Shown here piece after piece: positions 60,189-60,660 of a DNA stretch of 64,000 nt. Origin of the DNA: Candidatus Cloacimonadota bacterium (lineage in GTDB: Bacteria; Cloacimonadota; Cloacimonadia; Cloacimonadales; Cloacimonadaceae); contig JAKOXG010000010.1 in the NCBI GenBank assembly GCA_029781115.1, positions 4,582 through 68,581 on the forward strand, given 5' to 3'. The first letter of the stretch is position 1. Each line of letters starts with the position of its first letter. The notes beneath the pieces were generated by a model, which was not told the DNA's origin, made no database searches, and worked only from the letters and a program-made list of their open reading frames with translations. The position numbers were made by a program, and so were the translations under genes.

Positions 60189-60257
60189 AGTTGTTGCAAT
60201 AAATCAACAACGCTGTGTGAAAAAAGTGCAATTTGTCCTTGACCAAAAAAGCCAGAT

Positions 60258-60347
60258 ATTATTCTATGGAATCAGCCTACAGACCCTACATAGAATGCCC
60301 TCCGATCAGTGGGGATACCGCCCGGTAATCCCCACTGCCTTTTTTCT
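60258..60347 (+). ncRNA. Candidate small RNA or conserved 3' element, copy 1
   Basis: 60258-60353 is identical to 62754-62849 (96 of 96). It is preceded by a conserved TTGACC-N17-TTCTAT. It contains hairpin TTCTATG-N20-CATAGAA and the terminator CAGTGGGGA-N13-TCCCCACTG + CCTTTTTT. Confidence 0.4.
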
Positions 60348-60660
60348 GACCCTAAGTAAGGGGGGAATTAAACAAGCATTCGGTGTTCCAATTCCCAAAT
60401 TATTTCTACACCCGGCTCGTTTCGTTCAGTATAACAGTGTGCCAATCAAGCAGTTGCCAAATGATTAAAAATCTGGTAATCAGCTCAATTTCATTCACAG
60501 AATTTGTAGCAACCCTTGAGAAAGCTGCCAAGCCCAAAATTCATTCTGCACTTCACCCATAGATTTTGAGCAACGGCAATTAAAAAAGGCATTGACTTAT
60601 AACCCACATAACGTAGCGTTGCCACCACGAGAGCAAATAATAGTGTTAGGAGCCTATAAG

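Follow-up and report, generated by a model that had tools for sequence, protein, structure and literature searches.

The stretch of DNA analyzed here (64,000 nucleotides (nt), hereafter the window) belongs to contig JAKOXG010000010.1 of a Candidatus Cloacimonadota metagenome-assembled genome (MAG; GCA_029781115.1), which comprises 2.25 Mb with 50% G+C. Toward the end of the window two deiminase genes stand in tandem, followed by a gene for a PotA-like ATPase, and behind each deiminase gene lies the same 96-nt block. A first-pass annotation of the window had read this block as a functional unit of 75–90 nt, either an independent small RNA (sRNA), an RNA derived from a shared 3' untranslated region (UTR) or an attenuator for the next gene. 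Comparison with related genomes supports a compact functional RNA unit with a predicted promoter and terminator; at about 72 nt (60274–60345) it is slightly smaller than the low end of that estimate. The unit is self-contained. As judged from aligned sequences, it consists of a promoter, an invariant, unstructured and C-rich region and a covarying terminator, and it is conserved over the order, multicopy and partly located on phages. Very probably it is a real, independently expressed sRNA gene, which is the best supported of the three options. It represents a new RNA family of known kind, for which neither Rfam 15 nor the searchable literature has an entry. The features of both copies are listed below, where R1 denotes a covariance model built from 38 diverse copies.

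60258..60353, + strand: 96-nt block, copy 1; equals 62754–62849
60274..60345, + strand: predicted sRNA, copy 1, ~72 nt (R1 93.7 bits, E = 2e-25)
60274..60305, + strand: invariant 5' region, presumed seed; the same in nearly all family copies, by BLAST and not by exact match alone
60307..60337, + strand: predicted terminator hairpin, 13 bp with a one-base bulge, apex CC-GCCC-GG; supported by covariation
60340..60345, + strand: U-tract TTTTTT, preceded by CC; almost every copy has a T-run behind the hairpin
60239..60244, + strand: putative -35 box TTGACC, copy 1; family consensus CTTGACA
60262..60267, + strand: putative -10 box TTCTAT, copy 1; separated by 17 nt from the -35 box and by 6 nt from the predicted start
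62770..62841, + strand: predicted sRNA, copy 2, identical to copy 1 (R1 93.7 bits); start A62770
62770–62801, 62803–62833 and 62836–62841, + strand: presumed seed, hairpin and U-tract of copy 2
62736..62741, + strand: putative -35 box TTGACA, copy 2; 16-nt spacer to TTCTAT at 62758–62763

The predicted RNA is composed of AGCCUACAGACCCUACAUAGAAUGCCCUCCGA (32 nt), one variable base (U here), the hairpin, CC and UUUUUU. In the 5' region two C-rich motifs, ACCCU and GCCCUCC, are parted by an A/U-rich linker, and the 32 nt are unpaired in all minimum-free-energy folds. Within the family these 32 nt are invariant, and 21 nt of the presumed seed are retained in distant families. The distant copies, which were found by the model and not by exact match, keep ACCCUACAUA(G/A)AAUGCCCUCC together with the GCCC loop and differ in the first nine bases and in the stem. 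Since distant homologs retain them, three C-rich motifs, two of them single-stranded and one in the terminator loop, are constant features of the RNA. A leader peptide starting from the AUG in AUGCCCUCC was considered and rejected: it has no Shine-Dalgarno (SD) sequence, its frame is broken by single-base indels ahead of the hairpin, and in some variants a stop follows the third codon.

The GC-rich 9-bp stem followed by a T-run, which the first-pass annotation had taken for a textbook terminator, was recovered in place. Its stem core (CAGTGGGGA, 60307–60315, paired with TCCCCACTG, 60329–60337) extends to 13 bp around the GCCC loop and covaries. The hairpin folds with -21.3 kcal/mol (z = -3.3), within a range of -21 to -26 kcal/mol. 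Compensatory changes on both sides occur in 11 of the 13 hairpin pairs, and 89.3% of the hairpin cells are paired, versus 72.2% after shuffling and 39–49% with the partners slid by 1–3 columns; the observed covariation score was reached by none of 500 shuffles. A simple terminator scanner missed the hairpin because of the bulge. With its G+C-rich stem, its U-tract and its compensatory changes, the hairpin is a predicted intrinsic (Rho-independent) terminator of considerable strength, at which transcription would end near 60345.

For the promoter, a profile was derived from 130 non-redundant copies in an ungapped alignment on the core. C-TTGACA is located at columns -44 to -39 with 70–88% conservation per column, followed by a poorly conserved spacer of 17 nt and by a weak -10 hexamer, in which the last T (82%) and the next G (74%) are conserved. 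Six variable bases follow, and conservation then jumps to 88–100% from the A of AGCC on. This base is A60274, 7 nt past the conserved T-G with which the -10 box ends. Copies with a poorer -35 box (TTGCCT, TTGGCG) carry TATAAT, TATACT or TATATT at -10. Hence, a weak -35 box is offset by a strong -10 box, as is expected of real promoters. In this genome (G000) and in a complete genome of another genus (G015), (C)TTGACA is 5–8 times commoner upstream of predicted genes than control hexamers, and TAnnnT follows TTGACA preferentially at 16–17 nt. Because of this enrichment in both genomes, (C)TTGACA-N16-17-TAnnnT is regarded as the housekeeping promoter type of the phylum. The pair TTGACC-17-TTCTAT, already pointed out at first pass, fits the family-wide profile as well as the general promoter type, and an A-tract resembling an UP element precedes the -35 box of copy 1. 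The predicted sRNA has its own putative promoter at the proper distance, in register in the 130 copies. From this housekeeping-type promoter, (C)TTGACA-17-weak -10, transcription would start at or near A60274 (A62770 in copy 2).

More generally, and in contrast to Bacteroidota, the phylum, which belongs to the Fibrobacteres-Chlorobi-Bacteroidetes (FCB) group, relies on classical TTGACA/TAnnnT promoters and on SD sequences. AGGAG is found in ~26% and GGAGG in ~13% of the predicted start regions.

A second proposed hairpin, TTCTATG-N20-CATAGAA, fared less well. It is present in this genome but is not conserved, as all seven pairs can form in only 3 of the 130 copies. The mean is ~3.6 of 7 pairs, and the best two columns simply coincide with the promoter's conserved T-G. 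Since this hairpin uses the -10 box, lies upstream of the predicted start and shows no covariation, it was rejected as a family feature; it is peculiar to this genus.

A search of the genome and its relatives with a covariance model, as proposed in the first-pass annotation, was productive. The host genome carries four copies with an identical 27-nt core. Two of them are in the window, and the other two (C3:56500-56571 and ~C10:249001) differ in their flanks and hairpin sequences. With the 96 nt as query, BLAST detected the element in every family genome searched (24/24) and in part of the sister families. With R1, 68 of 68 family genomes were positive, with 1–8 copies each, and the element was found in most sister families of the order (f2, 5/6 genomes; f3, 2/2; f7, 3/3; f12, 9/9; also f5, f8, f9 and f13). 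R1 gave no match in the genomes searched from f11 (0/31), f6 (0/6), f14 (0/6) and f15 (0/13). The exact core 21-mer occurs in more than 119 contigs of a species-representative collection, where the named contigs among the matches listed are Cloacimonadota only. More than 120 metagenome contigs contain this 21-mer as well, and many of them are broken at this place. Rfam 15, including RsaE (RF01820) and the Bacteroidales motifs, gave no match on the element at E <= 10 with queries of 7 kb and 141 nt, and nothing relevant on RNAs or RNA motifs of Cloacimonadota was found in the searchable literature.

The genes around the two copies and the inverted repeats behind the deiminase genes are as follows.

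58167..60188, + strand: PPAD-like deiminase, paralog 1, with a C-terminal sorting domain of the type IX secretion system (PF04371, 1.3e-21; PF18962); upstream neighbor of copy 1
60190..60211, + strand: inverted repeat GTTGTTG-N8-CAACAAC immediately behind the paralog 1 stop codon, its center ~74.5 nt upstream of the predicted sRNA start
60592..62685, + strand: deiminase, paralog 2 (PF04371, 2.9e-28); located between copies 1 and 2
62689–62706: counterpart inverted repeat of copy 2, seen in the sequence
63146..64000, + strand: PotA-like ATP-binding cassette ATPase (PF00005, 9e-38); ~300 nt downstream of copy 2

Both blocks sit at matching places of a 2,497-nt tandem duplication with one deiminase gene per unit. 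In an alignment of the window, 60258–60353 and 62754–62849 agree at 96 of 96 positions, and the block edges are exact, with mismatches at 60257 versus 62753 and at 60354 versus 62850. Thus, the perfect identity amid a diverged duplication (69–77% otherwise) that had first drawn attention to the block was confirmed, and all sequence features named at first pass lie at the coordinates given there. The coding parts of the two units are 69–75% identical, the stretch from the stop codon to the block at the -10 region 77% (53 of 69 nt) and the 97 nt 3' of the block 53%. The tandem duplication is old, and at ~77% background identity the chance of a run of 96 matches is ~1e-11. An assembly artifact, which had been considered at first pass, is excluded because hundreds of independent genomes and metagenome contigs contain this element. 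Moreover, the Logan contig SRR15686344_467928 (L406), an independent assembly, contains deiminase paralog 1 exactly and ends 99 nt past its stop codon, which is 30 nt into the block. This end is the branch point expected for a k=31 assembly graph and therefore independently confirms that the repeat is real.

The identity had been put down to either purifying selection or gene conversion; the comparative evidence supports both. Besides the predicted sRNA, the block contains 8 nt behind it and 16 nt in front, the latter forming the -10 region. Two sister species, at their orthologous loci, deviate from the window at 2 and 6 of these 16 upstream bases, and the window copies have all 16 in common. 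Since these bases vary between species yet match locally, amid genes that are ~73% alike, gene conversion between the window copies is indicated. From these comparisons, the identity is best described as purifying selection on the 72 transcribed bases, in line with their family-wide conservation, plus gene conversion that also homogenized the 16 upstream and 8 downstream bases. The single deiminase of the two sister species is 78% identical to paralog 2 and 72% to paralog 1.

Phage-borne copies belong to one particular subfamily, found on eight tailed-phage contigs of IMG/VR with 28–37 kb (L398–L405) and not in the genome of the window. A conserved upstream region of its own characterizes this subfamily, and in front of it lies a small, divergent and conserved gene of 109–133 aa without a Pfam or PHROG match. 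Downstream follow at least three direct repeats of 17–22 nt, e.g. TTGAAGTTTTCAGTGAT (also in L036, L106, L133 and others), which look like iterons or a centromere-like site. On one phage contig the copy lies behind a tail module with a tape measure protein (phrog_3336, 3e-15), and genes for an ATPase and a DNA methyltransferase come next. This subfamily helps to account for the variable copy number in the family.

Such mobility would also suit a selfish or neutral promoter-terminator cassette that was dispersed by phages and recombination, so that the local identity would reflect recent gene conversion only. A copy number of 1–8, assemblies that often break at the element, a phage-borne subfamily and the gene conversion evident in the window agree with this explanation. 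Nevertheless, we regard it as very improbable: each of the 68 family genomes retains at least one copy, orthologous positions (deiminase-sRNA-potA or M14) are kept across genera, the sequence is invariant across the order while the hairpin evolves by compensatory change, and no terminal repeats or target-site duplications were noticed.

By analogy with known sRNAs, the RNA and its siblings would act in trans as a set, by C-rich stretches that pair with G-rich stretches of mRNAs, typically SD or start regions, without the help of Hfq, CsrA or RRM-1 proteins. Additionally, terminator read-through must drive the co-oriented genes whose starts, at many loci, lie just 20–45 nt past the U-tract. For this reading as a whole, i.e. 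a gene for a ~72-nt sibling sRNA including base pairing in trans, we estimate a probability of about 55%.

Several results weigh against it. Start, end and abundance of the sRNA are all inferred from the sequence. RNAduplex energies of the presumed seed with ~1,670 predicted start regions of G000 equal those of shuffled seeds. G015, which is complete (2,246,820 bp), contains one sRNA copy and shares 984 reciprocal-best orthologs with G000 at a median identity of 57%. In 618 orthologous pairs of the two genomes with aligned N-termini the duplex energies showed no enrichment, and no conserved antisense site of at least 8 nt was found at orthologous starts. The longest antisense match to the sRNA in the genome is 11 nt, as by chance. 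The invariance over 32 nt exceeds the needs of most seeds and may point to a protein or another partner. Finally, 54 of 110 co-oriented downstream genes start less than 60 nt from the U-tract, mostly at 20–43 nt and with an SD sequence, which also fits a cis-acting leader. Neither the deiminase nor the pot mRNAs stood out by complementarity to the sRNA, and the extended SD sequence GGAGGG was conserved at only one orthologous gene. The target screens were crude (ORF-based gene calls, no accessibility term, two genomes) and leave room for pairing.

The absence of a complementary target in these screens and the invariance of 32 nt across genera with proteins only ~57% identical speak for a protein-binding or decoy RNA. 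Its 32 nt would serve as a platform that titrates or guides a conserved protein; this could be, for example, a ribonuclease, a global RNA-binding protein or a component of the ribosome. The abundance of the RNA that is suggested by its high gene dosage and its near-consensus promoters with A-tracts also speaks for such a role. However, the candidate partners Hfq, CsrA and RRM_1 were not detectable in the genome, where the controls responded, and the RNA has no repeated protein-binding motifs such as GGA. In addition, its three-fold C-rich design is typical of pairing sRNAs, which the crude screens cannot exclude. Altogether, a function of this kind appears quite improbable.

A different question is whether the unit acts on its neighbors in cis. 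A co-oriented gene follows in 110 of 128 copies (86%) and a convergent one in 18 (14%). Downstream genes with the short gaps mentioned above must be transcribed by read-through, since there is no room for a promoter of their own. At these loci the unit must also be a promoter plus leaky terminator, and terminator read-through probably feeds the adjacent genes. In single-copy genomes the unit is located between the deiminase gene and potA, and a gene for an M14 carboxypeptidase is sometimes inserted between. As far as can be judged from these arrangements, potA is the ancestral downstream neighbor of the unit and a deiminase-type gene its ancestral upstream neighbor. In other genera, ~50 loci have a gene of the deiminase family at a constant distance ahead of the sRNA, and between families the genomic contexts of the sRNA vary.

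Hence, a cis-acting leader or attenuator has to be considered, in which promoter, 32-nt leader and terminator would gate the next gene (secreted M14 and M6 peptidases, potA, btpA, PHP phosphoesterase). Termination would be suppressed by a trans factor, protein or RNA, on binding to the invariant stretch, and the short RNA would be a by-product. The frequent co-oriented genes, the short gaps without promoter room and the position of the unit upstream of potA in single-copy genomes speak for such a leader. It is nonetheless unlikely, for the following reasons. The short gaps come from only ~5–8 independent contexts. The 18 convergent copies include at least five that are intact and promoter-bearing and face real genes, e.g. 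those for valyl-tRNA synthetase and a resistance-nodulation-division (RND) pump. The downstream genes are functionally unrelated and encode M14 and M6 peptidases, PotA, BtpA, a PHP-domain protein, RibH (lumazine synthase) and alcohol dehydrogenase. In three sister families (f2, f7 and f13) a small gene, a 68-aa open reading frame (ORF) downstream of efp, has its stop codon where the RNA begins, so that the RNA resembles a 3'-UTR-derived sRNA. Moreover, copies exist on phages.

The 5' part likewise lacks signs of a sensor. No structured, covarying sensor domain was found upstream of the terminator; the first 32 nt show no variation and no predicted pairing. Neither did an alternative pairing of the terminator arm emerge: without its 3' arm, the RNA folds with -6.89 kcal/mol versus -6.87 kcal/mol with a shuffled 5' arm, and only 1% of the sequences stand out. 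An antiterminator or riboswitch was therefore rejected, and a classical attenuator, the third option of the first-pass annotation, is unlikely because no conserved antiterminator structure exists.

The most far-reaching variant would combine both modes of action. In this case the element would be a phylum-specific master riboregulator with dual output: an abundant, anti-SD-like and chaperone-free sRNA, copied by phages to tap the host regulon, plus regulated read-through into mRNAs for secreted proteolytic enzymes and polyamine uptake. If true, sRNA dosage would be coupled to the amino-acid-fermenting lifestyle of Cloacimonadota. We consider this combination doubtful and distinctly unlikely.

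The inverted repeat behind the deiminase gene may contribute to expression of the sRNA. Its consensus TGT(T/G)GA-N6-8-TCAACA lies 3–8 nt after the deiminase stop codon and always ~39 nt before the sRNA -35 box; this distance is fixed in 50 deiminase-linked loci of other genera (among L008–L151). In several genera the repeat is a perfect FNR/CRP-type box, TTGAT-N4-ATCAA, and an UP-like A-tract follows. It may serve as a CRP/FNR-type operator from which the sRNA promoter is activated, or form a stem-loop at the 3' end of the deiminase mRNA.

The sRNA gene shares features with several well-described systems. Qrr1-5 of Vibrio are 1–5 sibling sRNAs per genome with a ~32-nt absolutely conserved stretch, while the remainder varies and the copy number depends on the species, as is the case here. 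In contrast to the present element, the Qrr sRNAs depend on sigma-54, LuxO and Hfq and have known targets. SreA/SreB of Listeria are riboswitch-derived and arise by premature termination of leaders, so that one promoter yields a short RNA and a read-through mRNA, as proposed here. Unlike SreA/SreB, our element has no aptamer or alternative structure, and many copies have no close co-oriented gene.

A further counterpart is found in the FopS/GibS sRNAs of Bacteroides thetaiotaomicron. FopS comprises 65–70 nt with a conserved 5' seed and a terminator hairpin and is present in 2–15 copies per genome, and a copy also occurs in a tailed phage; it is transcribed from housekeeping promoters and acts near the start codons of mRNAs for envelope proteins (PMC11697453). 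Compared by description only, both elements share the FCB superphylum, the size, the conserved 5' seed with terminator, the multicopy state and a phage copy. They differ in the promoter, which is of the sigma-ABfr type (TAnnTTTG) in FopS and TTGACA-17-TAnnnT here, and in the invariant part, which is C-rich and 32 nt long here versus 21 nt in FopS (PMC11697453). FopS has known targets, and its sequences are not in Rfam. The partner of FopS/GibS is RbpB, an RRM-1 protein, and RRM_1 is not detectable in this genome.

For the C-rich motifs, LhrC1-5 of Listeria monocytogenes offer a precedent. These multicopy siblings, partly arranged in tandem, bind AG-rich ribosome-binding sites by three UCCC motifs located in a single-stranded stretch, a loop and the terminator loop (PMC4132741). 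The corresponding motifs here are ACCCU, GCCCUCC and the loop GCCC. LhrC belongs to an unrelated phylum, shows no sequence similarity, has an extra 5' stem-loop and is induced by LisRK, and for our sRNA pairing to SD sequences would apply by analogy only. RsaE/RoxS of Bacillota target G-rich SD regions with unpaired C-rich regions, are conserved over a large clade and, in the case of RsaE, regulate arginine catabolism (PMC6158497, PMC5419742). A parallel may be seen in the ancestral neighbor of our unit, a gene of the arginine/agmatine deiminase type, though the link to arginine is by position only. RsaE is single-copy, has ~100 nt and two stem-loops, and the Rfam covariance search gave no match here.

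Cloacimonadota are abundant, uncultured degraders of amino acids and propionate in anaerobic digesters. To our knowledge, nothing is known of RNA-based regulation in this phylum. The element is a strong candidate for the first sRNA family, or riboregulator, of this ecologically important uncultured phylum: none of the main-family genomes searched lacks it, and it occupies orthologous loci next to genes for secreted deiminases and peptidases and for polyamine transport, reaches up to eight copies and has been taken up by phages. Of particular interest are the unusually long invariant region and the occurrence of chromosomal, tandem and phage copies. An invariant region of 32 nt in a genome without detectable Hfq, CsrA and RRM-1 raises the question of how the sRNAs of this lineage work. 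R1 can be used as a new RNA family model and would improve the annotation of several hundred MAGs. The element also explains recurrent contig breaks in Cloacimonadota assemblies.

Some minor observations concern adjacent sequences. A 91-aa ORF preceding potA (62870–63145) has no Pfam match, and its start was copied by the duplication. Behind sRNA copy 1, 60374–60376 read AAG where 62870–62872 read ATG. The motif GGTGTTCCAAT is kept behind both copies and in the sister species. Either the 91-aa ORF may be real or GGTGTTCCAAT may be a regulatory site of the pot operon. The 68-aa ORF of the sister families is basic and zinc-ribbon-like (CxxC...CxC) without a Pfam match (L394 1295–1501, f2; L395, L397, L033 and L034). 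At these loci a gene for an M6-type peptidase follows 23–61 nt behind the sRNA terminator.

Two abundant repeats were also encountered. The first, similar to a miniature inverted-repeat transposable element (MITE), has 230–290 nt, is intergenic and occurs in ~70–80 copies in the genome, including 57608–57897 (+ strand) and 33112–33401 (- strand) of the window. Its C-rich half can pair with its G-rich half in a long hairpin, and its end is formed by AATATTGA(C/T)TTTT motifs. Relative to the genes, 31 copies have the same and 37 the opposite orientation. Its module GGCATTTGAGRRGGGTC occurs 56 times in this genome and is absent from 69 of 70 other family genomes. With the most conserved stretch of this repeat the presumed seed forms a duplex of -30.4 kcal/mol, versus -23.1 +/- 2.2 kcal/mol for shuffled seeds, and 1 of 150 was as low. 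As a conserved target, however, the MITE-like repeat was rejected: it is present only in this genus, and the local DNA alignment to its consensus lacked significance (P = 0.25). It cannot explain the family-wide conservation of the sRNA, since the repeat is confined to the genus and the module to the species. The second repeat, (A)TGTAGGGTCGGTCGCCGGACCGACC, is a palindrome similar to repetitive extragenic palindromic (REP) elements, GGTCGGTC...GACCGACC, which often follows sequence of the CACGAATTA type. It was found among the antisense word matches and occupies many sites of G000, e.g. C9:31150, C22:81109 and C10:218090, which are located outside the window.

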